DNA from: an archaeon | GTDB taxonomy: Archaea; Nanobdellota; Nanobdellia; Pacearchaeales; GW2011-AR1 | Assembly: GCA_018651925.1 (NCBI GenBank) | Contig: JABIDC010000003.1 | Span: forward strand, 12,956-76,955 | Length of the DNA: 64,000 nt | Direction: 5' to 3' | In this document: positions 2,827-57,041 of the stretch, in pieces | How the letters are laid out: each line of letters starts with the position of its first letter | How positions within the stretch are numbered: the first letter of the stretch is position 1 | Made by a program: the position numbers and the translations under genes | Notes under the pieces: generated by a model | Seen by the model: only the letters and a program-made list of their open reading frames with translations | Told to the model about the DNA's origin: nothing | Database searches by the model: none

Positions 2827-3801
2827 ATGAGAAAAGAAAAGAAAATTCCCGAACCAAACCCCTTATTTCTAGAAAGAATGCAAGAAATATTTAATAGTGA
2901 AAAGGATTACAAAGAATACTTGGAAATTCTCAAGCACAAACCCTCAAAATCAATTCGTTGCAATACATTAAAAGTCTCTCCCGAAAAATTAAAGAAAAAA
3001 CTCGAAAGTTATGGGTGGAAATTAGTTCAACCATGGGAAGAATATCCAGAAGTGATGGTAATTGATTGTGAATTAGAACCTGGAGAACTCGGAAGAAGTT
3101 TAGAACATCTACTCGGTTATTATTATATTCAAGAATTAGCTAGTATGCTTCCAATCATTGCGCTAAAACCAAAAGAAAATGATGTAATTTTGGATTTATG
3201 TGCTGCACCAGGAAGTAAAACCACTCAAGCAGCAGCAGAAGCAAAAAACACCGGATTAATTATAGCAAATGAGTTATCAATGGGGAGAATCAAAATTCTT
3301 GCTTCAAATCTCGAAAGATGTGGAGTAACAAATACCATTATTACCAAAAAAGAAGGTGCGGCACTTTCTAAGAGGTTCAAAAAACAAAACTTAAAATTTG
3401 ATAAAATACTAGTCGATGCTCCCTGCTCTGGAGAAGGAACACTTCGAAGCAAATACAAAACACATGGCATGTGGAACATAAAAACAATAATGTCTCTGCC
3501 AAGGATTCAAAAAAGTTTATTTTTAGAATCATTTAAAATCCTAAAAGTTGGAGGAGAAATAATTTATTCAACTTGCACCCATGCTCCTGAAGAAAACGAA
3601 TCAGTTGTAAGTGCAATACTCAATGAATTGGGAGACAGAATAAAAATAGAAAAAATTAAAATTCCTGTAACAACAAGAAAAGGACTAACAAAATGGAAAA
3701 ATGATGAATATAATAAAGGAGTAGAATTGGCTTGCAGAGTTTATCCCCAAGATAATGATACAGATGGATTTTTCCTAAGTAAATTTACAAAATTAAAATG
3801 A
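2827..3801 (+). CDS. NOL1/NOP2/Sun-family RNA (cytosine-C5)-methyltransferase
   Basis: SAM-binding motif DLCAAPGSKT and the two catalytic Cys motifs DAPCSGEGT and YSTCTHAPEENE. ATG at 2827 is preferred over 2794 because of the TATA-like CATAAAATAATT at 2774-2785. Confidence 0.85.
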   Translation: MRKEKKIPEPNPLFLERMQEIFNSEKDYKEYLEILKHKPSKSIRCNTLKVSPEKLKKKLESYGWKLVQPWEEYPEVMVIDCELEPGELGRSLEHLLGYYYIQELASMLPIIALKPKENDVILDLCAAPGSKTTQAAAEAKNTGLIIANELSMGRIKILASNLERCGVTNTIITKKEGAALSKRFKKQNLKFDKILVDAPCSGEGTLRSKYKTHGMWNIKTIMSLPRIQKSLFLESFKILKVGGEIIYSTCTHAPEENESVVSAILNELGDRIKIEKIKIPVTTRKGLTKWKNDEYNKGVELACRVYPQDNDTDGFFLSKFTKLK

Positions 3802-4277
3802 GACCCCCAGAATTCAAAATACTAAACCCGAAAGAGAAAAAAGAAGTTGAAAATAAATTAAAACTTCAATTTGGAATTGACCATATTTCCGGAACAGTTT
3901 TACAAAGAGGAGCAGAAAGATTATTTTTATTCAGAGGAGAATTGGATTACAATCACATAAAAGAAATAGAAGATAATGTTCCTGTTGAAAGAATTGGAAT
4001 CTATTTTGCAAAACATGCACATGACAGCATTAGATTGAGCATTGAAGGAGTTCAAGCCCTAAAAGACCAAATCACCAAAAATATAATTGAATTGAATGAA
4101 GAAGATTCAAAAACTTGGATGTATGGAGAAGAAGTTCAAATTGAAACTGGAAAAAAATGTTATGTTGTAATCAAACATAAAGATTACTTCTTGGGTTGTG
4201 GAAAAGCTTCAGAAAAGAAAATTTCAAACTTCATCCCAAAATCAAGAAGATTGAGAAATAAAAATATTATTAAATAA
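3798..4277 (+). CDS. NIP7-like PUA-domain protein (UPF0113 type)
   Basis: 159 aa. RIGIYFAK...IRLSIEGVQAL followed by the PUA-like segment CYVVIKHKDYFLGCGKA. Its start overlaps the methyltransferase stop (ATGA). Confidence 0.65.
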   Translation: MRPPEFKILNPKEKKEVENKLKLQFGIDHISGTVLQRGAERLFLFRGELDYNHIKEIEDNVPVERIGIYFAKHAHDSIRLSIEGVQALKDQITKNIIELNEEDSKTWMYGEEVQIETGKKCYVVIKHKDYFLGCGKASEKKISNFIPKSRRLRNKNIIK

Positions 4278-4281
4278 TTTT

Positions 4282-4539
4282 ATGAAAAACAATTATCTTG
4301 CAAAACTCAAAAGAACGCTAACCTCGGTTCTTCCAATTTCCAAACAAAGAACAGGGGATTGCATTAACTGTGGGGCTTGCTGCAAACTTCCAAAAAGATG
4401 TTTTTTTCTAAAAACAAAATCTAACGGAAAATCTTATTGTTCAATCTATTTAATCAGACCATTAAATTGTAGAAAATATCCAAGAATAAAATCAGAACAA
4501 TTAACTCAAAAAACTTGTGGTTTCAAATTTAAAAAATAA
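4282..4539 (+). CDS. YkgJ/UPF0153-type cysteine-cluster protein
   Basis: 85 aa with the CxxCxxCC signature (GDCINCGACCK) plus downstream Cys residues. Confidence 0.7.
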   Translation: MKNNYLAKLKRTLTSVLPISKQRTGDCINCGACCKLPKRCFFLKTKSNGKSYCSIYLIRPLNCRKYPRIKSEQLTQKTCGFKFKK

Positions 4540-4541
4540 AA

Positions 4542-4928
4542 CTACTCAACATAAACAGGACGATATTGAAGAATTAAAGAAAATAATTCAATGGAATCTC
4601 TTGAGTCATATTCAACACCAAATGAAGGGTTATATTTTTCATCTAATTGCAAAAGAGATTTAGTATCCCAAAAATCATCTGAATTAATAAGAAACTTTAC
4701 CCTAAAATCTAATCCTCTAAATTGTCCCGCAACAAATTGATCGCGAGTAGTCTCTTCCCCAATAATCTCTGCTGGAACGCCTTTTTCATATAAGTAATCA
4801 ACCAGCCCAGAATGATTCTCTGGAGAATTCCAATTCCCGGTTCTAGAAGATACTCTTTCTCCAACTTCTCTTTCCATAGAAAAAAGAAAAATAAATCCTT
4901 TATAATAATTCTTGTCTTTTAACATCAA
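4542..4928 (-). CDS. hypothetical protein (orphan)
   Basis: 128 aa ORF, Arg/Gly/Asp-rich compared with neighbours. No motif recognised. An internal ATG (MEREVGE) is an alternative start. Confidence 0.5.
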   Translation of the reverse strand: MMLKDKNYYKGFIFLFSMEREVGERVSSRTGNWNSPENHSGLVDYLYEKGVPAEIIGEETTRDQFVAGQFRGLDFRVKFLINSDDFWDTKSLLQLDEKYNPSFGVEYDSRDSIELFSLILQYRPVYVE

Positions 4929-4953
4929 GAAAACTTAAAAACGCTTTCTCCTA

Positions 4954-5400
4954 ATGACTACTATGACTCCAAGGGAATTTCTAAATAAAGCAACATCTCT
5001 AAACGGACACGCTTCACGACAAGTTACAGAACTATTCAGATATTCAACAGCAGGAACAACTGCAGCAATTCTTGATTTTACTGTATTAATAGCATTAGTA
5101 GAAATATTTCATGTAAATTACTTATATGCCGCAGCAATTGGATTTATTGTTGGAACCACAACCTCATTTACCATCGACAAAAAAGGGGGATTCAAGGCAA
5201 CCAAAAGAGGATTCAAACAAGGACTTTTAATCTTCGCAACTTTTAGTGGAATTTGTTTAATATTAACAATATTCACATTAAAATTTGTTGTAGAAAATCT
5301 AGAAATGAATTATATTATTGCTAAATTTCTCGTTGCAATTATAATCAGCATATTAAATTTCGCACTAAATTACAATATTACTTTTGGAGATTTAAAATAA
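4954..5400 (+). CDS. GtrA-family membrane protein
   Basis: 148 aa with 4 TM segments and a GtrA-like N-terminus RYSTAGTTAAILDFTVLIALVE. Confidence 0.75.
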   Translation: MTTMTPREFLNKATSLNGHASRQVTELFRYSTAGTTAAILDFTVLIALVEIFHVNYLYAAAIGFIVGTTTSFTIDKKGGFKATKRGFKQGLLIFATFSGICLILTIFTLKFVVENLEMNYIIAKFLVAIIISILNFALNYNITFGDLK

Positions 5401-6278
5401 TGGAAAAAGAAAAAATACTTTTAGCAGGAGAAATAACAAAAAAAGTAAAAGCAGATGCAAAAGACTTTATAAAAAAAGGAATGCCTCTCTTAGAAATTGC
5501 AGAAAGAATTGAAAATAAAATAGTTGAACTGGGAGGGAAACCAGCGTTTCCAACAAACCTTTCAATAAATAATATTGCAGCACACTACACCCCCTTTCAT
5601 GAAGATAAAACACTAGCCGAAGGACTACTCAAGGTAGATTTTGGCGTCCACATAGACGGCTGGCTATCAGATAATGCATTCAGTTTAGACCTAGAAAATT
5701 CTGAACTTAATAAAAAATTAATCGAGAGCTCAAAAAACGCATTAAAAAAAGCATTAGAAACAATTGAAATAAAAAAAACAACAAATGAAATTGGGAAAGT
5801 GATTGAAGACACAATTCAAGAAAAAGGATTTCAACCGATAAGAAACCTTTCAGGACACTCAATGGACCAATATGATTTACATGCAGGAATAACCATGCCA
5901 AACATCGATGACAATTCAAATATAGAAATTCCTGGGGGACTTTATGCAATTGAACCTTTTGCAACAACTGGCTCAGGAAAAGTTCACGATGGAAAACCTT
6001 CTGGAATTTACATGATCGTTGATGATAAAAACATCCGAAGCCCGATTGCAAGAGAAGTTTTAAATTTTATAATTGATGAATATCAAACAATTCCTTTTTG
6101 TGAAAGATGGATAATTAAAAAAGTTGGAGCAAAAGCATTATTTGGATTAAGACAATTAGAACAAAATGGAAATCTTCATCAATTCAAACAACTAGTTGAA
6201 GAAAAAGGAGCTTTAGTTTCTCAAGCAGAAAATACAATTCTTTTATTAGAAAGTGAAAAAATAATCACCACAGAATAA
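5400..6278 (+). CDS. map: methionine aminopeptidase, type II (archaeal/eukaryotic type)
   Basis: 292 aa. Metal-ligand context AAHYTP, VDFGVHIDGW, SGHSMDQYDLHAG, EPFATTG and QAENTIL. Confidence 0.9.
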   Translation: MEKEKILLAGEITKKVKADAKDFIKKGMPLLEIAERIENKIVELGGKPAFPTNLSINNIAAHYTPFHEDKTLAEGLLKVDFGVHIDGWLSDNAFSLDLENSELNKKLIESSKNALKKALETIEIKKTTNEIGKVIEDTIQEKGFQPIRNLSGHSMDQYDLHAGITMPNIDDNSNIEIPGGLYAIEPFATTGSGKVHDGKPSGIYMIVDDKNIRSPIAREVLNFIIDEYQTIPFCERWIIKKVGAKALFGLRQLEQNGNLHQFKQLVEEKGALVSQAENTILLLESEKIITTE

Positions 6279-6467
6279 TTATCTACGCCCATCTAAATCA
6301 ATTGCTTCTTGCATATGAATATCTCGATATGGATCTGGTTTTGGAGGCATTGGGCAATCACAAATTTCCGCTCTTGCAACATAAATATTTCGAAGAGCAC
6401 ATACATTTTTGCACTCCCCAGCATTTAATGCCAATCTTCCCAAGGGACTAATTCCCTGCATAAACAT
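6279..6467 (-). CDS. small Cys-containing ORF, possibly the frameshifted C-terminus of 6448..6888
   Basis: 62 codons open. It overlaps the end of the upstream ORF by 20 nt in another frame, and its own frame is closed by a TAA only 3 codons before its ATG. Confidence 0.3.
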   Translation of the reverse strand: MFMQGISPLGRLALNAGECKNVCALRNIYVARAEICDCPMPPKPDPYRDIHMQEAIDLDGRR

Positions 6468-7679: not shown

Positions 7680-9944
7680 TTACTTCTTATTAGAAACTTT
7701 CTTTTTCTCAACTTTTTTCTCAATCTTTGGTTCTTCTTTGGGCAAATCTTTAGGCATATTTTTCATCAACTCAGCCATGTCTGGCATGCCTGGTTGTTCC
7801 ATTCCAAAATTGTTTTTTCGATTATCTACTTTTACTTTTTGTTTTTTAACTTCTTCATAAGCTAAATCAAAATCTTTTTTACTAATTGTTAATTTTTTAT
7901 TTTCAGATTTAAAATTTCTCTTAATGGCATTAATTCCAGCATTTCTTGCAACAGCCTCAATATCCGCACCAGTAAATCCTTCAGAAGATTTAGCATAGAT
8001 CAAAACATCTATTCCTTTTTCTAAGGGCATATTCTTTGTATGAACTTTAAAAATTTCTTCACGTGTTTTCAAATCTGGAATACTCAATTCAACAATTGCA
8101 TCGATCCTTCCAGGACGAAGTAAAGCAGAATCAATTAAATCATGACGATTAGTCGCTGCAATAATCATTACATCTCCTAATTCTTCAACTCCATCTAACT
8201 CAGTTAATAATTGATTAACAATCTTTTCAGAAGAATCACTTCCAGCACCACTCCCTCTTGCTTTTGAAATTGAATCAAACTCATCAAAGAAAATAATTGC
8301 AGGTGCAACTTGTTTTGCTTTCTTAAAAATCTCTCGAACATGTTTTTCACTTTCTCCAACCCATTTTGAAACTAATTCTGGTCCTTTAATTGAAATAAAA
8401 TTTGCATTTGCTTCTGTAGCAACTGCCTTTGCCAAAAGGGTCTTTCCAGTTCCAGGTGGCCCAGTAAGTAAAACTCCTTTCGAAGGTTTAATTCCTGCTT
8501 GCAAATATAAATCTGGACGCATTAAAGGCAACTCAACTAATTCTCTTAATTTTTCTTTTGCTTCTTGCAATCCTCCAACATCAGACCAATGAACATGAGG
8601 TTTCTTAATCAAAACTTCTCGCATTGCAGAAGGTTCCACCTGTTTTAATGCTTGAATAAAATTATCTTTTGAAACAGTAATTTTTTCTAACTCTTCTGCA
8701 GGAATTTTTTCATCTAAATTCTTAAACTTTGCCAAATGAGGTTTCAAGGCCTTCATTCCTGCTTCCTTACATAAAACTTCTAAATCTGCTCCAGTATATC
8801 CAATTGTTTTTATTGCAAGTTCATTAAAATCTACATCTTTTTCTAAAGGCATTCCCCGAGTATGAATTTGTAAAATTTCATAACGTCCTTCTTCACTAGG
8901 AGGATTAATTCTAAGTTCCCTATCAAACCTTCCTGGACGTCGAAGTGCTTCATCAATATCATCTGGACGATTCGTTGCAGCCATCACAACAATTTGTCCA
9001 CGAGATTTAAGTCCGTCCATAATTGTTAAAAGTTGTGCAACAATTCTTTTCTCGGTTTGATCAGTTCCTTCTCCCCTCTTCGGAGCAATAGAATCAATTT
9101 CATCGATAAAAATAATTGCAGGAGAATTCTTTTGAGCTTTTTCAAAAACTTCACGAATATGCTTTTCACTTTCTCCATAATATTTGCTCATGATTTCTGG
9201 ACCAGCAATTGAATAAAAATTTGCTTCAGTTTCAGTTGCAACCGCTTTTGCTAAAAGAGTTTTTCCCGTTCCAGGTGGCCCAGTAAGTAAAACTCCTTTT
9301 GGAGCCCCAACACCAAGACGTTCAAAAACTTCTGGTTGTTTCATTGGCAATTCTACCATTTCTCTCACTAGTTCAATTTCATCTTTCAATCCACCAATAT
9401 CTTCATAATAAATTCCAGGCGTCGCACCTTCTCCAGAATCAACATCATCACTAACCACAATCTTTGTTGAAGGCCCAACAATAACCCCTTTTCCTTTAGG
9501 CATAACTTTTGAAACAACATAATTTAATCTTGTTCCAAAAACATCAATAACTAATTTTTGTCCGGGAATTAAAGGTTTATCTAAAAGTTTCGTGTGAAAA
9601 TATTCTGTAGGATTATCACTAAACTTTATTCCTTCTTGAGTTGGAGACAAGGTAATTGATTTTGCAACAATTGTTTCAACTTTTTTTATTATTATATCTT
9701 CTCCAATTGTAGCCCCAATTGTTGAACGAATTGTTCCATCAAGACGAACTGCTCCGGTTGTAAGTTCTTCCCCAAACGCACGCATAACTTTTACAATAAC
9801 TGATTTTTTTCCTTTAATCTCAATTAAATCTCCTGGGACTAATTTCATTGCGTCTAAATCTTTTGTTAAAATTCTAGCGATTCCTTTATCAATATCTTCT
9901 TGCATAGATTCTGCAACTCTCAAATTAAAATCTTTTTCTACCAT
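7680..9944 (-). CDS. Cdc48/VCP/p97-type AAA+ ATPase (copy 1)
   Basis: 754 aa. N-domain plus two AAA modules, each with Walker A GPPGTGKT, Walker B IIFIDE/IIFFDE and the SRH region. Lys-rich C-terminal tail. Confidence 0.95.
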   Translation of the reverse strand: MVEKDFNLRVAESMQEDIDKGIARILTKDLDAMKLVPGDLIEIKGKKSVIVKVMRAFGEELTTGAVRLDGTIRSTIGATIGEDIIIKKVETIVAKSITLSPTQEGIKFSDNPTEYFHTKLLDKPLIPGQKLVIDVFGTRLNYVVSKVMPKGKGVIVGPSTKIVVSDDVDSGEGATPGIYYEDIGGLKDEIELVREMVELPMKQPEVFERLGVGAPKGVLLTGPPGTGKTLLAKAVATETEANFYSIAGPEIMSKYYGESEKHIREVFEKAQKNSPAIIFIDEIDSIAPKRGEGTDQTEKRIVAQLLTIMDGLKSRGQIVVMAATNRPDDIDEALRRPGRFDRELRINPPSEEGRYEILQIHTRGMPLEKDVDFNELAIKTIGYTGADLEVLCKEAGMKALKPHLAKFKNLDEKIPAEELEKITVSKDNFIQALKQVEPSAMREVLIKKPHVHWSDVGGLQEAKEKLRELVELPLMRPDLYLQAGIKPSKGVLLTGPPGTGKTLLAKAVATEANANFISIKGPELVSKWVGESEKHVREIFKKAKQVAPAIIFFDEFDSISKARGSGAGSDSSEKIVNQLLTELDGVEELGDVMIIAATNRHDLIDSALLRPGRIDAIVELSIPDLKTREEIFKVHTKNMPLEKGIDVLIYAKSSEGFTGADIEAVARNAGINAIKRNFKSENKKLTISKKDFDLAYEEVKKQKVKVDNRKNNFGMEQPGMPDMAELMKNMPKDLPKEEPKIEKKVEKKKVSNKK

Positions 9945-10321
9945 TATTTCCGTTTAAACTTTACCTCCAATACTCCATTTTTGAATGTCTTTTGAAATTC
10001 TTTATGTTTAACAAAACTAGGTAATTCTTTTTTAAATTCAACTCCACGAATAAGTTTTTCTTTAAGATAAGGTTGAACTTCAGCAAGTTTTTCTTTAACT
10101 GCTTTTACAAAAATTTCATTCTTTGTTATCTCAACCTTAACATCATCAAAAGAATAACCAGGAATTTCAAAAACAAAATAAACTTCTTTTCCTTGTTCAA
10201 TAAAATCAATTACTCTTTCTTCTTGTTCACCAGTAATAACTCTTTTTCTTCGGGTCGTAGGCCTTCCACCAAATAATTCATTTACCATTTCATCGAATCC
10301 TTCATCTCCAAAAAAGCTCAT
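9944..10321 (-). CDS. small heat-shock protein (Hsp20/alpha-crystallin family)
   Basis: 125 aa. EVYFVFEIPGYSFDDVKVEITKNEIFVKA ... FKNGVLEVKFKRK. Its start overlaps the upstream Cdc48 stop (ATGA), and its stop overlaps the downstream Cdc48 start (TAATG). Confidence 0.85.
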   Translation of the reverse strand: MSFFGDEGFDEMVNELFGGRPTTRRKRVITGEQEERVIDFIEQGKEVYFVFEIPGYSFDDVKVEITKNEIFVKAVKEKLAEVQPYLKEKLIRGVEFKKELPSFVKHKEFQKTFKNGVLEVKFKRK

Positions 10322-12621
10322 CCTAAATAACTCCCTGAACTCGGAATCGCAGCCTTAGCTGACTTCAAAAAGTTCTCTTCAATTTTTTTATAAGCTTCCA
10401 ATGTTTCTTTTGTTACACTTGATTTAATTTTTGTTAATGCTTTTGTAAAATGTTTCTTTGTCACAACTTCAGATTTCAAATTTTCTCTTAAAGCAATCAT
10501 TGCAGCTTCACGAGATAATGCTTCCAAATCCGCACCAGTAAAACCAACTGTTTCTTTTGCAATCAAATTGATATTTACATCTTTTTCCAAAGGCATATTT
10601 TTTGTATGAATCTTCAAGATCTTTTCTCGACCAATTTCTTCTGGCGCATTTACCAAAAGCATCTTATCAAAGCGACCAGGCCTTAATAATGCTGTGTCTA
10701 ACATATCCGGTCTGTTCGTAGCAGCCACAACCAAAATATCATTCATTTCTTCAAGCCCATCCATCTCTGCAAGCATTTGATTCAAAACTCTTTCTGTAAC
10801 TTTTCCCCCTTGATCATTTCCTCGCTTCCCAGCCAAAGAATCAATTTCATCAAAAAAGATCACACAAGGAGAAACTTGTCTCGCACGTTCGAAAATTTTT
10901 CTCATTCCTTCTTCAGATTTTCCAACCCACATAGAAAGTAATGAAGGTCCCTTCACTTGAATAAAATTTGCTTCAGATTCTTTTGCAACTGCCTTTGCAA
11001 GCAAAGTCTTTCCAGTTCCAGGAGGACCATAAAGTAAAATTCCTCGACTAGGACGAATTCCCATTCTCTTGAAACTATCTGCATATTTCATTGGCCATTC
11101 AACTGCTTCATTTAATTCTTGCTTAATCGAATCTAAACCTCCGACATCACTCCAATCTACATTTGGAGTTTCAACCAAAACTTCTCTCATCGCAGAAGGT
11201 CGAACAATCTTTAATGCAGCATCAAAATCTTCTTTTTTAATAATTAATTTCTCTAAAACTTCTGATGCAATTTCTTCTTCAGACAATTTAATATCTGGCA
11301 ATAATTTTCTCAAAACATTCATCGCAGCTTCCTTACATAAAGACTCTAAATCTGCACCAACAAAACCATGTGTAACAGAAGCTAAATATTCTAAATCTAC
11401 TGTATTCTCTAAAGGCATTCCACGAGTATGAATTTTCAAAACTTGTAATCTTCCTTTTTTACTTGGAACTCCAACTTCAATTTCTCGATCAAATCTTCCA
11501 GGACGCCTTAAGGCAGAATCAAGAGCATTAATTCTATTTGTAGCTCCAATAACAATAACTCTTCCACGAGATTTCAAACCATCCATCATTGTCAAAATTT
11601 GAGAAACAACTCTTCTTTCAACTTCTCCTTGAACATCTTCTCTCTTAGGGGCAATAGCATCAATTTCATCAATAAAAATAATTGAAGGAGCATTAACTTC
11701 TGCATCCTCAAAAATAGAACGAATCTTTTTTTCAGATTCCCCATAAAATTTACTCATAATCTCTGGACCATTAAGTAAAACAAAATTTGCTTCAGTTTCA
11801 GTTGCAACCGCTTTTGCTAAAAGAGTCTTTCCTGTTCCAGGAGGACCATGTAACAAAACTCCTTTAGGAGGTTCAACTCCAAGTTTTTGAAAAATCTCTG
11901 GGTGCTTCATTGGAATTTCAACCATTTCCCGAATCTTTTTTATTTCTTCATCCAATCCTCCAATATCTTCATAATTAATTTCAGGGATTTTTTCATCAAG
12001 CATTTCAACTGCTTTTGAATTCAAAACAACTTCAGTATTTTCAGAAATAAAAACAGGTTTATTTGGATCAGCATTTACAACAACAAATTTTAATTGAGTA
12101 ATTCCCCCTCCAAGATTTCCCATTCCACCAAAAGAGTCAAGCAAGTTTCCAAAAATATCTCCCATATCACCCATATCACCCATTAAATCTTTTCTTCTTT
12201 GCACTCCCCCCAATACAACCAAATCTCCTTTAACCAAAGTTCTTCCAAGCAAACCTTTCCTAAGATTATCTGAATCTCCTTGGACCATTATTCCTTTTTG
12301 TGCGGGTGCAATTGTAATTTTTTTAGCTTCCTTCATTTCCACAGAATCAATTTCTACAAAATCTCCAATTCCAGTCTTAGCATTACGTCTTAAAATTCCA
12401 TCAATACGGATAATTCCTTCCCCCACATCTGCAGGATAAGCCCGATCAACAATTGCCACAGTTGTTCTACTTCCTTTAATCAAAATTGAATCTCCACGAC
12501 TAACTCCCAATTTTTCCATTATGGATTTATCAATTCTTGCGATACCTTTGTAAGCATCATCTTGCAAAGCTTCAACAACTTTCAATTCGATTTGTTTATT
12601 CTTCTCCATTTTCTTTTCCAA
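10318..12621 (-). CDS. Cdc48/VCP/p97-type AAA+ ATPase (copy 2)
   Basis: 767 aa. Two AAA modules (GPPGTGKT twice). The N-domain carries a Gly/Met/Asp-rich insert ([26 protein letters not shown]). Confidence 0.95.
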
Positions 12622-14017: not shown

Positions 14018-14080
14018 TAGATAAACCTTTTAAACTTAAATCTTAATATATTTTTAGAATAACGTCAGTTATTTCATTAT

Positions 14081-14155
14081 GGCTTCGTAGCTCAGCCTGG
14101 TCAGAGCACTAGACTCTTAATCTAGGTGTCGAGGGTTCAAATCCCTTCGGGGCCA
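14081..14155 (+). tRNA. tRNA-Lys (anticodon CUU)
   Basis: 75-nt cloverleaf folded by hand: acceptor GGCTTCG/CGGGGCC (two G-U pairs), D arm GCTC/GAGC, anticodon arm CTAGA-CTCTTAA-TCTAG, T arm GAGGG-TTCAAAT-CCCTT, discriminator A. No encoded CCA. Confidence 0.9.
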
Positions 14156-14173
14156 TAATCTTTATTTTTATTT
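14144..14173 (+). repeat. direct repeat copy 1 (last 12 nt of tRNA-Lys plus 18-nt T-rich trailer)
   Basis: CCTTCGGGGCCATAATCTTTATTTTTATTT is identical to 14248-14277. Confidence 0.9.
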
Positions 14174-14247
14174 GAACCTTGGTTTGGTGGCTGAAATTTA
14201 TTTCAGATGCCAGGCGAAAATTCCCCAAAGAATTTTCAGCCCAAAAA
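14174..14247 (+). other. conserved tRNA-trailer element (two hairpins), homologous to 43086-43164 on the minus strand
   Basis: Hairpins at 14191-14206 and 14213-14241. The 5' core ATTTGAACCTTGGTTTGGTGGCTGAAATTTATTTCAGATGCCAGGCGAAAATT matches about 46 of 55 hand-aligned positions of the element downstream of tRNA-Ile. Confidence 0.6.
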
Positions 14248-14277
14248 CCTTCGGGGCCATAATCTTTATTTTTATTT
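14248..14277 (+). repeat. direct repeat copy 2 (copy of the tRNA-Lys 3' end plus trailer)
   Basis: Exact 30-nt copy of 14144-14173, located 104 nt downstream. Confidence 0.9.
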
Positions 14278-14325
14278 AAAAAATAATTTTATCCTTTCCT
14301 TTTGGAAATCTTTCTTTTAAATAAT

Positions 14326-42419: not shown

Positions 42420-43061
42420 ATGTTTAATAAAGACAAATGTCCAAAATGTGAAAAAAAAGTTAATAAAAATAATAGCTTTTGCTCTAATTGTGGAAAACAA
42501 TTAAGAGAGATAAAAATGAAAAAGAATGGTATGCTCGGAGAAAATGATTTTATTGAAAATAAACAAACAAATTCAAATGGCATTCTGGGCAACTTAAATG
42601 ATAAAATGTTAAATAAAATGTTAAATGGGGCAATGAAAATGTTGGAAAAGGAAATGCAAAAGGGAATGCAAGGAGATTTAAAAAAAATGCCAAAAACTAA
42701 AGTTAAAATAATGCTTAATGGAAAAGAACTTGGTTTGAATGGCGCACCCAAGGTTGTTCAAAATCAACCAAAAAAAATTATTCTCCCAAAAAGAATTCTA
42801 AAAAATTTTGCAAATCTAAGAAAAACAGAACCAAAAACAAAACTAAAAAGATTAGGAGACACAATAATTTATGAAATTGAACTGCCCCAAGTAGAATCAA
42901 TAGAAAACATTTCAATTATTCAATTAGAAAGCAGTATTGAAATAAAAGCAGTTTCAAAAGAAAATGCATATTCAAAATTAATTCCAATTAATCTTCCAAT
43001 TACTAATTTTAATTTCTCAAATGAAAAACTAATTCTTGAAATGAATCAAATTCAAAATTAA
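42420..43061 (+). CDS. zinc-ribbon protein with C-terminal Hsp20/alpha-crystallin-like domain
   Basis: CPKCEKK...CSNCGK ribbon, a Met/Lys/Asn-rich linker, and C-terminal IYEIELPQVESIENISIIQLESSIEIKAVS...EKLILEM. Confidence 0.55.
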   Translation: MFNKDKCPKCEKKVNKNNSFCSNCGKQLREIKMKKNGMLGENDFIENKQTNSNGILGNLNDKMLNKMLNGAMKMLEKEMQKGMQGDLKKMPKTKVKIMLNGKELGLNGAPKVVQNQPKKIILPKRILKNFANLRKTEPKTKLKRLGDTIIYEIELPQVESIENISIIQLESSIEIKAVSKENAYSKLIPINLPITNFNFSNEKLILEMNQIQN

Positions 43062-43065
43062 AATT

Positions 43066-43085
43066 AGGCTGCACGGATTGAGCCG
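43066..43085 (-). repeat. degenerate copy of the tRNA-Ile 3' end
   Basis: The minus strand reads CGGCTCAATCCGTGCAGCCT, versus CGGTTCAAATCCGTGCAGCCT in the tRNA. The 14-nt core AATCCGTGCAGCCT is exact (43066-79 versus 43167-80). Confidence 0.8.
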
Positions 43086-43164
43086 AATATTTATTACAGA
43101 AATATTCGACATGGCACCTGAAAATAAATTTCATTCACCAAACAATGTTCAAATCCTAAAAAAA
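43086..43164 (-). other. conserved tRNA-trailer element (two hairpins), homologous to 14174-14247
   Basis: The minus strand reads T7-AGGATTTGAACATTGTTTGGTGAATGAAATTTATTTTCAGGTGCCATGTCGAATATTTCTGTAATAAATATTCGGC. Hairpins at 43119-43133 and 43082-43110. Confidence 0.6.
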
Positions 43165-43239
43165 TGAGGCTGCACGGATTTGAACCGTGGACCCCTGCCT
43201 TATCAGAGCAGTGCTCTAGCCAGACTGAGCTACAGCCTC
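43165..43239 (-). tRNA. tRNA-Ile (anticodon GAU)
   Basis: 75-nt cloverleaf folded by hand: GAGGCTG/CAGCCTC acceptor, anticodon arm CTGCT-CTGATAA-GGCAG, T arm CACGG-TTCAAAT-CCGTG, discriminator A. Confidence 0.9.
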
Positions 43240-43262
43240 ATATATTTATGAAATAAGATGTT

Positions 43263-43274
43263 GGTTATTTAAAG
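43263..43274 (-). promoter_or_regulatory. TATA-like box for tRNA-Ile
   Basis: The minus strand reads CTTTAAATAACC, centred about 30 nt upstream of the tRNA 5' end. Confidence 0.45.
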
Positions 43275-43301
43275 CTTTTTATAAAAATAATAACCCAAAC
43301 G

Positions 43302-49383: not shown

Positions 49384-51285
49384 TTATTCAAATCTAACCT
49401 TCCTAAATCCTCGAATATTTTTTATTCTTTTTACTAACTTTACAACTTCATTAAGTTTTCTTGGAACAATAACAAATGAACACTCCACAAACTCCTCATC
49501 AAGACCCTTAATTGTTGCATCATTTACAATAAATCCTCCATGAATTATTGTATTCAAAAAATCTTTCAAAACTCCTGATCTTTCTTTAGCTTCAACAAAT
49601 ATTTTAATCGGCCGACTAAATTCTTCCTTCCAAGAAACAGGGATGATTTTATCTTTTACTTTTGAAACATAATTACAATCTGTTTTATGAACTAAAACTC
49701 TTTTTTGTGATTTAATAACTCCGACAATTTCTTCCACAGGCATTGGAGAACAACATTTGGCCAAACTAAATTCATAATGATTAAAATCCCTAGAGTAAAC
49801 CAAAGAATCAAAAGAAAGCTTTTCTTTTGAAGAAATAACATAATTTTTATTGATTTCAATATTATCTCTTTTCTTAATTGCTTTCTTAATAAAAGTTTTA
49901 GCTCTTGAAGAAACAACAAATTTTATCCAATGCCTTCTAGGAACTTGTAACTTATTTGTTAAAACCACAACAACATCTCCAGATTTTAATTTCTTCTTCA
50001 ATGGAACAAAAGAACCATTAATCCTTCCAGCAACCGCTTTATTCCCAACTTCTTGATGAACATAATATGCAAAGTCTAAAACAGTAGAACCCTCCGGAAG
50101 TTCAATTGCTTTTCCCTTAGGAGTATAACAATAAACCTTTTCCCCAAAAATACTTTTTTTAATTGAACCCAATAAATCTCGATCTTCACCTTTTAATTCC
50201 ATTACTGAACGAAGCCAAGAAACCTTCTTCTCAAAACCTAAATCAGATTTCATATTTTTATAAGACCAATGAGCAGCACTACCTTCTTCTGCTTCTTCAT
50301 CCATTCTCTTTGTTCGAATTTGAACTTCAATTTTTTTTGAATCTACAATCAAAATCGTATGCAAAGATTGATATCCATTTGATTTTGGATTAGCAATATA
50401 ATCTTTCAAAAGACCCTGCATTGATTCATATTTTTCATGTAAAATTCCCAAAACATCATAACAATCTTTTTCAGAATTCACAATAATTCTCATTGCAAAA
50501 TGATCCCGATGTAAATCCAAAGGAATTTTTCTTTCAGTAATTTTTTTATAAATACTATAAATTGATTTTTCACGACCCTTGATTTTTACAATTTTCTTTT
50601 TATCTAAACTTCTTCGAATTTCTTGGATAAATAAATCAATAAAATCTTTTCTTTCTTTTTTCGTAGCATCTAAAAATTTTGCAATCTCAAAGTATTTTTT
50701 ATTGTTTAAAATTTTCAAGGAAATATCTTCCAAATTTCTTTTTATTTGTTCTAATCCCAATCTATTTGCTAAAGGAGCATAAATCTCCAGAGATTCATTA
50801 GCAATCCTTTTTTGTTCTCGAATTCCAAAAACAGAAACATCTTTCAAATTCTCTAACTTGTCTGCAAGCTTAACAAAAATAATTCTTGGATCACTCAAAG
50901 TAACAAATAAAACTTTTCTCAATAATTCAGATTCCAAATCTTTATGTTTCGCTTTAATCTCTCTCAATTGTAATTGTCCAAAAACAAGCTCTGAAACAGA
51001 ACCTCCAAATTTCTTCTTTAAATCAGTAATTAAAATATCTTCTTCAACCCCATGTAAAAGCCCAGCCAAAATAACTTCAGAAGATAAATGATTCTCAGCC
51101 AAAATCGCCCCTACTTTCAAATTATGGACAATCAATAACTCCCCATTCAATCTTTTTTCATCAATAAAAACCTCTTCAATAAAAGAGATTGCTTCTTTAA
51201 ATTTAGAAAGCTGTTTTTTTGAATATTTTTCTTTACATAAATCAAAAAATTTATCTTTATATTCCATTAATAATCCAAAAATCAT
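49384..51285 (-). CDS. RelA/SpoT homologue (long RSH: HD-like, synthetase, TGS, Cys-rich, ACT-like domains)
   Basis: Synthetase motifs GREKSIYSIYKK, DHFAMRII, NGYQSLHT, EVQIRT and AAHWSYK. TGS VYCYTPKGKAIELPEGSTVLDFAY. Cys motif CCSPMP...VHKTDC. The HD region reads LLHGVEED and KLADKLENL (HD dyad not intact). Confidence 0.85.
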   Translation of the reverse strand: MIFGLLMEYKDKFFDLCKEKYSKKQLSKFKEAISFIEEVFIDEKRLNGELLIVHNLKVGAILAENHLSSEVILAGLLHGVEEDILITDLKKKFGGSVSELVFGQLQLREIKAKHKDLESELLRKVLFVTLSDPRIIFVKLADKLENLKDVSVFGIREQKRIANESLEIYAPLANRLGLEQIKRNLEDISLKILNNKKYFEIAKFLDATKKERKDFIDLFIQEIRRSLDKKKIVKIKGREKSIYSIYKKITERKIPLDLHRDHFAMRIIVNSEKDCYDVLGILHEKYESMQGLLKDYIANPKSNGYQSLHTILIVDSKKIEVQIRTKRMDEEAEEGSAAHWSYKNMKSDLGFEKKVSWLRSVMELKGEDRDLLGSIKKSIFGEKVYCYTPKGKAIELPEGSTVLDFAYYVHQEVGNKAVAGRINGSFVPLKKKLKSGDVVVVLTNKLQVPRRHWIKFVVSSRAKTFIKKAIKKRDNIEINKNYVISSKEKLSFDSLVYSRDFNHYEFSLAKCCSPMPVEEIVGVIKSQKRVLVHKTDCNYVSKVKDKIIPVSWKEEFSRPIKIFVEAKERSGVLKDFLNTIIHGGFIVNDATIKGLDEEFVECSFVIVPRKLNEVVKLVKRIKNIRGFRKVRFE

Positions 51286-56899: not shown

Positions 56900-56921
56900 G
56901 ACCTAATAGCTCAGTTGGTTA
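56900..56921 (+). repeat. orphan copy of the 5' 22 nt of tRNA-Asn
   Basis: GACCTAATAGCTCAGTTGGTTA versus GACCCGATAGCTCAGTTGGTTA at 56968-56989 (20 of 22 match). Confidence 0.8.
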
Positions 56922-56967
56922 TTATCCACAGAATTTTAACTATCTTCGCTCAAAAGTCAAAACAAAA

Positions 56968-57041
56968 GACCCGATAGCTCAGTTGGTTAGAGCGAACGGC
57001 TGTTAACCGTTAGGTCGCAGGTTCGAGTCCTGCTCGGGTCG
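56968..57041 (+). tRNA. tRNA-Asn (anticodon GUU)
   Basis: 74-nt cloverleaf folded by hand: GACCCGA/TCGGGTC acceptor, anticodon arm AACGG-CTGTTAA-CCGTT, T arm GCAGG-TTCGAGT-CCTGC, discriminator G. Confidence 0.9.

Follow-up and report, generated by a model that had tools for sequence, protein, structure and literature searches.

An intact tRNA gene that is followed, about 100 bp downstream, by a second copy of its own 3' end raises the question of what lies between the two copies and how it came to be there. The arrangement occurs at the tRNA-Ile(GAU) gene of a marine DPANN archaeon of the Woesearchaeota/Pacearchaeota type. The stretch of DNA analysed here, 64,000 nucleotides in all and called the window throughout, is an AT-rich part of the core genome (GC about 31%); it lies on contig NODE_55 of ERZ4200966, and a 200 m metagenome from Saanich Inlet contains it too. 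The genes in it are housekeeping genes, among them those for TFS, L15e, MetRS, ValRS, MCM, DNA ligase, topoisomerase and FtsZ, and Pfam annotation of the window contig contained no integrase, transposase or Cas1. A tandem pair of CDC48-type AAA ATPases (754 and 763-767 aa) is encoded at 7680-12621 on the minus strand, with small HSP20-family genes beside each. ARAGORN and Rfam placed three tRNA genes in the window, Lys(CUU), Ile(GAU) and Asn(GUU), and the first two carry the element described here.

The element downstream of tRNA-Ile(GAU) and its paralogue

The features of the two loci, and the third tRNA gene, are as follows.

43164-43240, minus strand: tRNA-Ile(GAU) by ARAGORN (Rfam tRNA at 43165-43239, 68.7 bits), complete and uninterrupted
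43157-43164, minus strand: spacer from the tRNA end to the inverted arm, consisting of T7 (43158-43164), an archaeal terminator-like oligo-T, and then A
43147-43156, minus strand: left arm (a') GGATTTGAAC, reverse complement of the tRNA T-loop GTTCAAATCC, a 10/10 complementary inverted repeat
43112-43140, minus strand: hairpin 1, with outer stem TGGTG/TGCCA and inner stem TGAAA/TTTCA (43119-43133), from folds and the Lys alignment
43082-43110, minus strand: hairpin 2, GTCGAATATTT / AAATATTCGGC, 11 bp, from folds and the Ile/Lys comparison
43060-43085, minus strand: right arm and distal copy of the tRNA 3' end, a direct repeat that forms the closing stem in folds
42420-43061: convergent zinc-ribbon gene, 213 aa, facing the Ile-locus element
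14080-14156, plus strand: tRNA-Lys(CUU)
14157-14280, plus strand: paralogous element after tRNA-Lys(CUU), made up of a spacer, ATTTGAACC (14170-78), hairpin 1 (14186-14211), hairpin 2 (14213-14241) and the next entry
14242-14280, plus strand: distal tRNA end and trailer copy of the Lys element, 39 nt at 92%, 30 nt exact
56968-57041, plus strand: tRNA-Asn(GUU)

A preliminary description of this DNA had reported a 14-nt direct repeat, a T7 run and two hairpins behind tRNA-Ile, and the sequence and its folds bear this out. On the minus strand the tRNA gene is followed by T7, an insert of about 85 nt without an ORF (the element as a whole is about 100 nt) and the copy of the tRNA 3' end. The repeat, AATCCGTGCAGCCT, is exact over 14 nt (43066-79 versus 43167-80) and is prolonged by aATTTT to 20 nt, of which one is mismatched (43060-79 versus 43161-80, a spacing of 101). 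The distal 14-mer copies the T-loop end, the T-stem 3' strand and the acceptor 3' strand of tRNA-Ile, and CGGCTCAATCC, within the right arm and distal copy, is a degenerate T-arm. The element has the same spacing in 10 independent assemblies and is therefore not an assembly artefact.

An inverted T-loop arm, a closing stem and a kinship with the RtT repeats of E. coli can be added to the preliminary description. Within the left arm, GGATT (43152-56) is complementary to AATCC (43075-79) in the distal copy, and their pairing closes the whole element. The left arm and the T-loop part of the distal copy thus form a closing stem that encloses exactly two hairpins; the 3' tail of the element, which equals the acceptor 3' strand of the tRNA, is left unpaired in the folds. 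The T-loop and 3' strand of tRNA-Ile are the source of both arms. Both hairpins are present in the minimum-free-energy fold (z = -2.2 as RNA; as DNA, z = -2.5 for the sense and -2.2 for the antisense strand), and the interior folded alone gives z = -3.6. The element follows an oligo-T run and faces the convergent gene, as had been noted. Only a few bases separate the stop codon of that gene from the distal tRNA copy (43059-43066), so that the insertion left almost no gap.

Several other readings of this segment were rejected. The sequence cores of a small ribozyme (hammerhead or other) and of a C/D-box sRNA do not fit. Split, permuted and reverse-strand tRNAs were rejected on reading the sequence, the tRNA being complete; the complete tRNA also speaks against a T-loop intron with a bulge-helix-bulge, and bacterial members of the class exclude archaeal splicing. 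A decayed tandem tRNA duplicate was rejected as well: the interiors are unlike the tRNA 5' parts, and the T-loop-to-3' segment alone is ever retained.

The element had been called a second copy of one at the tRNA-Lys locus, and we agree: the Ile and Lys trailers have about 80% column identity. The counterpart of GGATTTGAAC in the Lys copy is ATTTGAACC, a T5 run takes the place of T7, and hairpin 1 is conserved in sequence in the alignment. Hairpin 2 had been thought to keep its position and to differ in sequence. The position is indeed conserved; the sequence is less different than supposed, since 8 of the 11 positions of its 5' arm are identical in the two copies. Its substitutions, for which compensation had been raised as a possibility, are in part compensated: at three pairs both partners have changed and pairing is kept, in a comparison of two copies in a manual register that was used because the MAFFT register was shifted.

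Short repeats are common in an AT-rich genome, and the likeness of the two loci could in principle be due to chance or to a recent segmental duplication. The chance of either is negligible in our view. The layout is found at two of the three window tRNAs and, outside the window, at dozens of loci; within the window the core TTTGGTGNNTGAAATTTATTT occurs at the Ile and Lys loci only, and the flanks and repeated ends are tRNA-specific. The preliminary description had already doubted a segmental duplication, and the differing flanks and tRNA ends, together with interiors that are only about 80% alike, settle the point.

Exact-pattern scans for the core of the window subfamily had no matches in the genome and viral collections, and the same pattern returned from the metagenome collection the Lys locus itself and nothing new. 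The Lys locus was found identical in a JGI metagenome contig. With two copies in all of the collections searched, recent movement of the window copy is unproven.

The third tRNA gene, tRNA-Asn(GUU), has a different T-loop (TTCGAGT) and is without an RtT-like insert. A partial copy of its 5' part, GACCTAATAGCTCAGTTGGTTA (56900-56922, 16 nt exact), lies 46 nt upstream of the gene. A 12-mer match to the tRNA-Lys end at about 61347 was dismissed as a chance CCC-TTCG-GGG hairpin.

Occurrence at orthologous loci and in other genomes

Orthologous loci were sampled with one genome per species. Among 80 loci around L15e orthologues, tRNA-Ile(GAU) adjoins L15e in about 46, and the insert is missing from most of these. 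An insert with a copy of the tRNA 3' end is present in 6-7 of the approximately 46 (about 15%; L011, L017, L061, L064, L076 and L085), while L013 and L015 have an empty site with the same convergent gene. The interiors of the inserts are mostly unrelated, and related species carry unrelated replacements; in the closest relative, L011, hairpin 1 is still recognisable. Around TFS orthologues, 8 of about 34 tRNA-Lys(CUU) loci (24%) have analogous inserts, again with unrelated interiors. Both of these unbiased orthologue sets are small. The patchy occurrence at orthologous loci implies a sporadic insert, acquired repeatedly at one and the same site.

Contigs of related marine strains part from the window exactly at the tRNA end (43158-43164), in a noisy comparison which suggests that these relatives have empty sites at tRNA-Ile. 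An excised or circular insert would be expected to have the circle or tandem junction ...TATTCGGCTC-AATCCGTGCAGCCT-CATTTTTTTAGGATTTGAAC, and a precise empty site the junction 43165/43065; the assembled contigs of the relevant runs contained no excised, circular or empty-site form within one population. In two Woesearchaeota loci, L061 (1789-1880) and L085 (112-200), tRNA-Ile(GAU) has an anticodon-loop intron, and ARAGORN mistypes some of these genes.

A wider survey, again with one genome per species, used a pattern scan that required a T-loop and, 15-45 nt farther on, its reverse complement; it yielded at least 120 loci. As the scan demanded both the T-loop and the inverted T-loop, the set of matches is biased. 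Among the matches listed, more than 60 of 91 such tRNAs have their 3' end repeated 56-210 nt downstream as well, and the layout is found at many tRNA isotypes. The archaeal carriers belong to the DPANN, Methanosarcinales, Halobacteria and Thermoplasmata; the bacterial carriers are Omnitrophota, Desulfitobacteriia/Peptococcaceae, Gastranaerophilales and candidate-phyla-radiation lineages, with Firmicutes and others represented too. The left arm complements tRNA-specific T-stem bases in 69/91 and 50/91 cases, against permutation means of 28 and 24. This complementarity concerns bases 5' of the required decamer and is not imposed by the scan pattern.

The interiors of all 17 archaeal members tested (17/17) contain exactly two hairpins, mostly with z between -2 and -6.5, and stems of at least 6 bp number 75 versus 27 per shuffle (about 2.8x). 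MAFFT and RNAalifold recovered the closing stem only, because the hairpin sequences cannot be aligned. Tandem arrays are common (L048, L118, L125, L158, L192 and others), and distal tRNA copies are often mutated. Like the complementarity of the left arm, the hairpins, long stems, arrays and mutated copies do not follow from the scan pattern. Interior 8-mers are shared with the local surroundings about 2-fold more than expected (88 versus 40), an excess that is probably in part a composition effect and is not decisive.

The RtT repeats of E. coli are 178-bp repeats at tyrT/tyrV (Rfam RF00391; rttR, tpr ORF). They have reportedly been known since the late 1970s, and we know of no accepted origin or function for them. 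As in the window, the unit directly follows the tRNA gene. It consists of a spacer, an inverted copy of the tRNA-Tyr T-arm (GGGGAAGGAT..GAACCTTCGA), hairpins and then AATCCTTCCCCCACCACCA, which is the last 19 nt of tRNA-Tyr and starts with AATCC; thus the E. coli and the window elements both end in the 3' terminal sequence of their own tRNA. The RF00391 consensus has a closing stem between the inverted arm and the distal copy, with the tail unpaired, and the window folds have the same. The E. coli units are tandem, whereas the window element is single-copy, shorter (about 100 versus 178 bp), AT-rich, archaeal and without GAGCGAAGCGAG-type motifs. The E. coli arm also extends into the acceptor strand, while the window arm covers the T-loop only. 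According to one preprint (10.1101/2024.07.17.603846), stress raises the coverage of exonuclease-resistant DNA at the RtT locus.

The likeness between the window element and RtT is one of architecture and not of scored membership. Against RF00391 the window element had no match at 42950-43300 even at E <= 10, nor did the whole window at the gathering threshold (45 bits), whereas the four E. coli units, used as a positive control, score 133-138 bits. Sixteen other loci likewise had no RF00391 match, and Rfam scans at relaxed thresholds gave nothing but tRNA, 5S and SRP, plus noise. To judge from the sequences compared, the RtT-like class is far more widespread than Rfam's narrow enterobacterial family suggests.

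The motif GCGAAGC / CGAAGCG occurs in 9 of 65 element interiors versus 0.37 expected (about 20-fold), with carriers at many loci (L092, L097, L100, L129, L136, L176, L188 and L201), and also in the E. coli RtT units (L214). It is common to GC-rich members and RtT and is absent from the window copies, and GCGAAGC has a 9:1 bias to the tRNA-sense strand.

A RelA/SpoT-type protein, which is unusual in archaea, is encoded in the window at 49384-51285 on the minus strand (633 aa; HD_4, RelA_SpoT and TGS domains). The RtT RNA of E. coli was formerly tied to the stringent response; the presence of the gene in the window is probably a coincidence.

Possible alternatives: trailer RNA, integration scar or transposon

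The preliminary description implied a conserved, structured trailer RNA. As a functional RtT-type RNA, the element would be part of the tRNA transcript until 3' processing set it free, and would act as a structured small RNA or as a cis element in tRNA maturation. Its closing stem and hairpins would then be RNA structure, and its 3' tail would imitate the end of the tRNA. In E. coli, RtT carries an annotation as a small RNA (rttR), and its Rfam family has the same closing stem. Across the class, closing-stem pair 2-81 of the RNAalifold structure varies among GC, AU and CG types, and many archaeal members are without a T-run between tRNA and element. The outer stem of hairpin 1 in the Ile copy contains two G-T pairs, which work on the sense strand only. 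Over 65 elements, folding favours the sense over the antisense strand by a small margin (mean -1.7 kcal/mol, p = 0.012); this excess and the strand bias of GCGAAGC leave room for an RNA or sense-strand role.

Other properties are not those of a conserved RNA. Most orthologous loci are without the element, interiors are replaced, and the distal tails decay. Judged as a generic structured RNA, the class has a covarying closing stem and the slight sense excess, but its stem mismatches are G:T in 7 cases and A:C in 6, and its loops are symmetric, with GNRA tetraloops in 5 cases versus 4 of their reverse complement and TTC triloops in 7 versus 6 of GAA. The window element folds equally well on both DNA strands. 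Such symmetry is expected of DNA palindromes and not of a selected RNA, and favours a feature of the DNA level. Oligo-T runs (T7 and T5) stand ahead of the window elements, the RNA runs contained tRNA-like words only, and the metatranscriptomes of the same study were without the element. In light of the strand symmetry, the RNA runs and the oligo-T before both window copies, an RNA function is the weaker explanation, unlikely but still live.

The structure could also be the scar or miniature of a plasmid or virus that integrated into the tRNA gene, an attL-remnant-attR arrangement left by a tyrosine integrase that recombined within the T-loop-to-3' segment; the incoming DNA would have carried its own tRNA 3' end, and deletion would then have reduced it to the attP arms. 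Partial-tRNA att duplications have been described for tycheposons (10.1101/2020.12.28.424599). Elements bounded by attL and attR, such as tycheposons and the archaeal SSV/pTN3 types, resemble the present one in a repeat that starts in the T-loop, an intact gene, empty sites in relatives, tandem accretion and decay of the distal copy. As at integrase att sites, the repeat here begins in the T-loop and mostly stops at the tRNA end, ending at most 3 nt from it in 28 of 63 members; sometimes, as at the window Lys locus, it continues across the spacer and takes in half of the inverted arm, beginning with its near end, and in tandem arrays it goes farther.

The attL/attR elements have kilobases between their copies, in contrast to about 100 bp here without genes or integrase. 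In addition, the present element has an extra inverted arm that matches the tRNA, and the same core may stand at different tRNAs; a classical attP would account for the direct copy but for neither of these. Independent deletions would not converge on a single size and layout. No integrase is present in the window, and none is enriched near 60 elements: the 94 ORFs within 3 kb downstream of these contained no Pfam family with more than 2 members, the neighbours being ordinary housekeeping genes. A bacterial member had no phage or plasmid match by BLAST, and the window core had no match among viral contigs. We consider an integration scar quite unlikely.

Two gene islands of about 2.5 kb at bacterial loci, L144 (about 3100-6300) and L161 (2186-5230), are bracketed by tRNA 3' copies, a point in favour of an integration scar, but they too are without an integrase. 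Their cargo is a xylose-isomerase-like protein with an alcohol dehydrogenase, and Fic/DOC with an alpha/beta hydrolase. Each tRNA 3' copy at these islands has an RtT-like element after it, and the islands look like cassette-style cargo at tRNA genes.

A MITE or casposon-like insertion would make the repeated tRNA end a target-site duplication and the T-loop-like arms terminal inverted repeats. Casposons carry genes for Cas1 (casposase) and a family B polymerase between terminal inverted repeats, and duplicate 14-15 bp of target at tRNA 3' ends. In the present class the arms form inverted repeats, the repeat in the window measures exactly 14 nt, and one archaeal subclass has repeats of 16-18 nt without exception. 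Across members, however, the repeat ranges from 11 to about 40 nt, and the spacer between the tRNA end and the left arm varies from 3 to 35 nt without conservation, leaving no defined left terminus. The right inverted repeat sits within the direct repeat, and there is no transposase or Cas1 gene nearby. The agreement of the window repeat with the casposon length is a coincidence of identity length. The variable repeat and spacer lengths and the matched arms exclude a transposon with a fixed stagger, and we regard an insertion of this general kind as very improbable.

Proposed copying of the core between tRNA genes

Paralogous elements stand at different tRNAs in three genomes: Ile and Lys in the window, Lys and Glu in L130, and Pro and His in L136, the cores of the last pair being about 90% identical in their 3' half. 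In all three pairs both arms, the inverted left one and the direct right one, fit the local tRNA, including its T-loop differences (TTCAAAT versus TTCGAAT; CAAAT versus CAAGT). On both sides, the shared core gives way to the tRNA-specific arm within the T-loop.

The explanation that we put forward, and to which we give about an even chance, is that the tRNA-Ile trailer contains a small DNA insert of the RtT type, non-coding and non-autonomous, which is copied between tRNA genes. Its two-hairpin core lies between two arms derived from the tRNA, the gene remaining intact and the arms pairing into a stem; the left arm is the inverted T-loop and T-stem 3' side, and the right arm a direct copy from the T-loop to the tRNA 3' end. 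This architecture, its recurrence, the presence/absence polymorphism, the matched arms, the decay and the lack of linked genes are observations. We infer that the core is copied from tRNA gene to tRNA gene by way of the nearly invariant T-loop sequence (TTCAA / TTGAA), with both arms rebuilt from the recipient tRNA at each event. Copying through this pentamer with rebuilt arms would fit the locally matched arms of the paralogues. The agent may be a recombinase acting in trans or template switching of replication at the palindromic T-arm. Once in place, the insert would persist as selfish or neutral DNA, with tandem amplification and decay of the distal tRNA copy. Where no terminator intervenes, the tRNA transcript would include it as a 3' trailer, which tRNase Z would remove.

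A recombinase might act on a folded site that mimics the duplex of the tRNA gene, as at the integron attC and the CTX phage attP sites. The attC sites are 57-141 nt long. These folded single-strand sites resemble the present elements in size, in an imperfect palindrome with conserved ends (...GAAC / GTTC...) and variable terminal structure, in a stem duplex that reproduces the double-stranded target, and in arrays with or without cargo (L144 and L161 here). The attC consensus RYYYAAC/GTTRRRY differs from the window ends, TTTGAAC / GCTCAAT; the anchor here is the tRNA T-loop and not attI or dif, and the window contains no tyrosine recombinase.

Template switching at quasi-palindromes gives a similar mosaic of direct and inverted copies of neighbouring sequence plus hairpins, with junctions in short shared motifs. 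It needs no dedicated enzyme and is possible in all domains. Its events usually concern a few to tens of nucleotides, whereas here one layout recurs and cores are common to several loci, and this route requires three switches. We hold the two agents equally in view and do not rank one above the other.

A broader proposal, possible but rather less than probable, is that RtT-type elements of both domains are T-loop-targeted mobile cores that gain, at every insertion, inverted and direct copies of the recipient T-arm, the folded site mimicking the target duplex. If so, they would be either non-autonomous mobile elements of a new type or a recombination hotspot of universal occurrence, with the E. 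coli RtT RNA a mere by-product.

In public metagenome-assembled genomes, N-runs interrupt tandem copies of the element in L048 (about 1650-1750) and L265 (about 1980-2080), and assemblies seem to break at these elements. The class is thus a source of breaks in such genomes, and also a source of tRNA-end pseudo-repeats that can lead predictions of genomic islands and att sites astray. In its behaviour the class resembles selfish or neutral DNA lodged in tRNA trailers. With the same plan behind many archaeal and bacterial tRNA genes, an isolated curiosity becomes a general phenomenon at the 3' ends of tRNA genes. It points to a little-studied way of copying DNA into the trailers of these genes, and the question becomes what copies through the T-loop.
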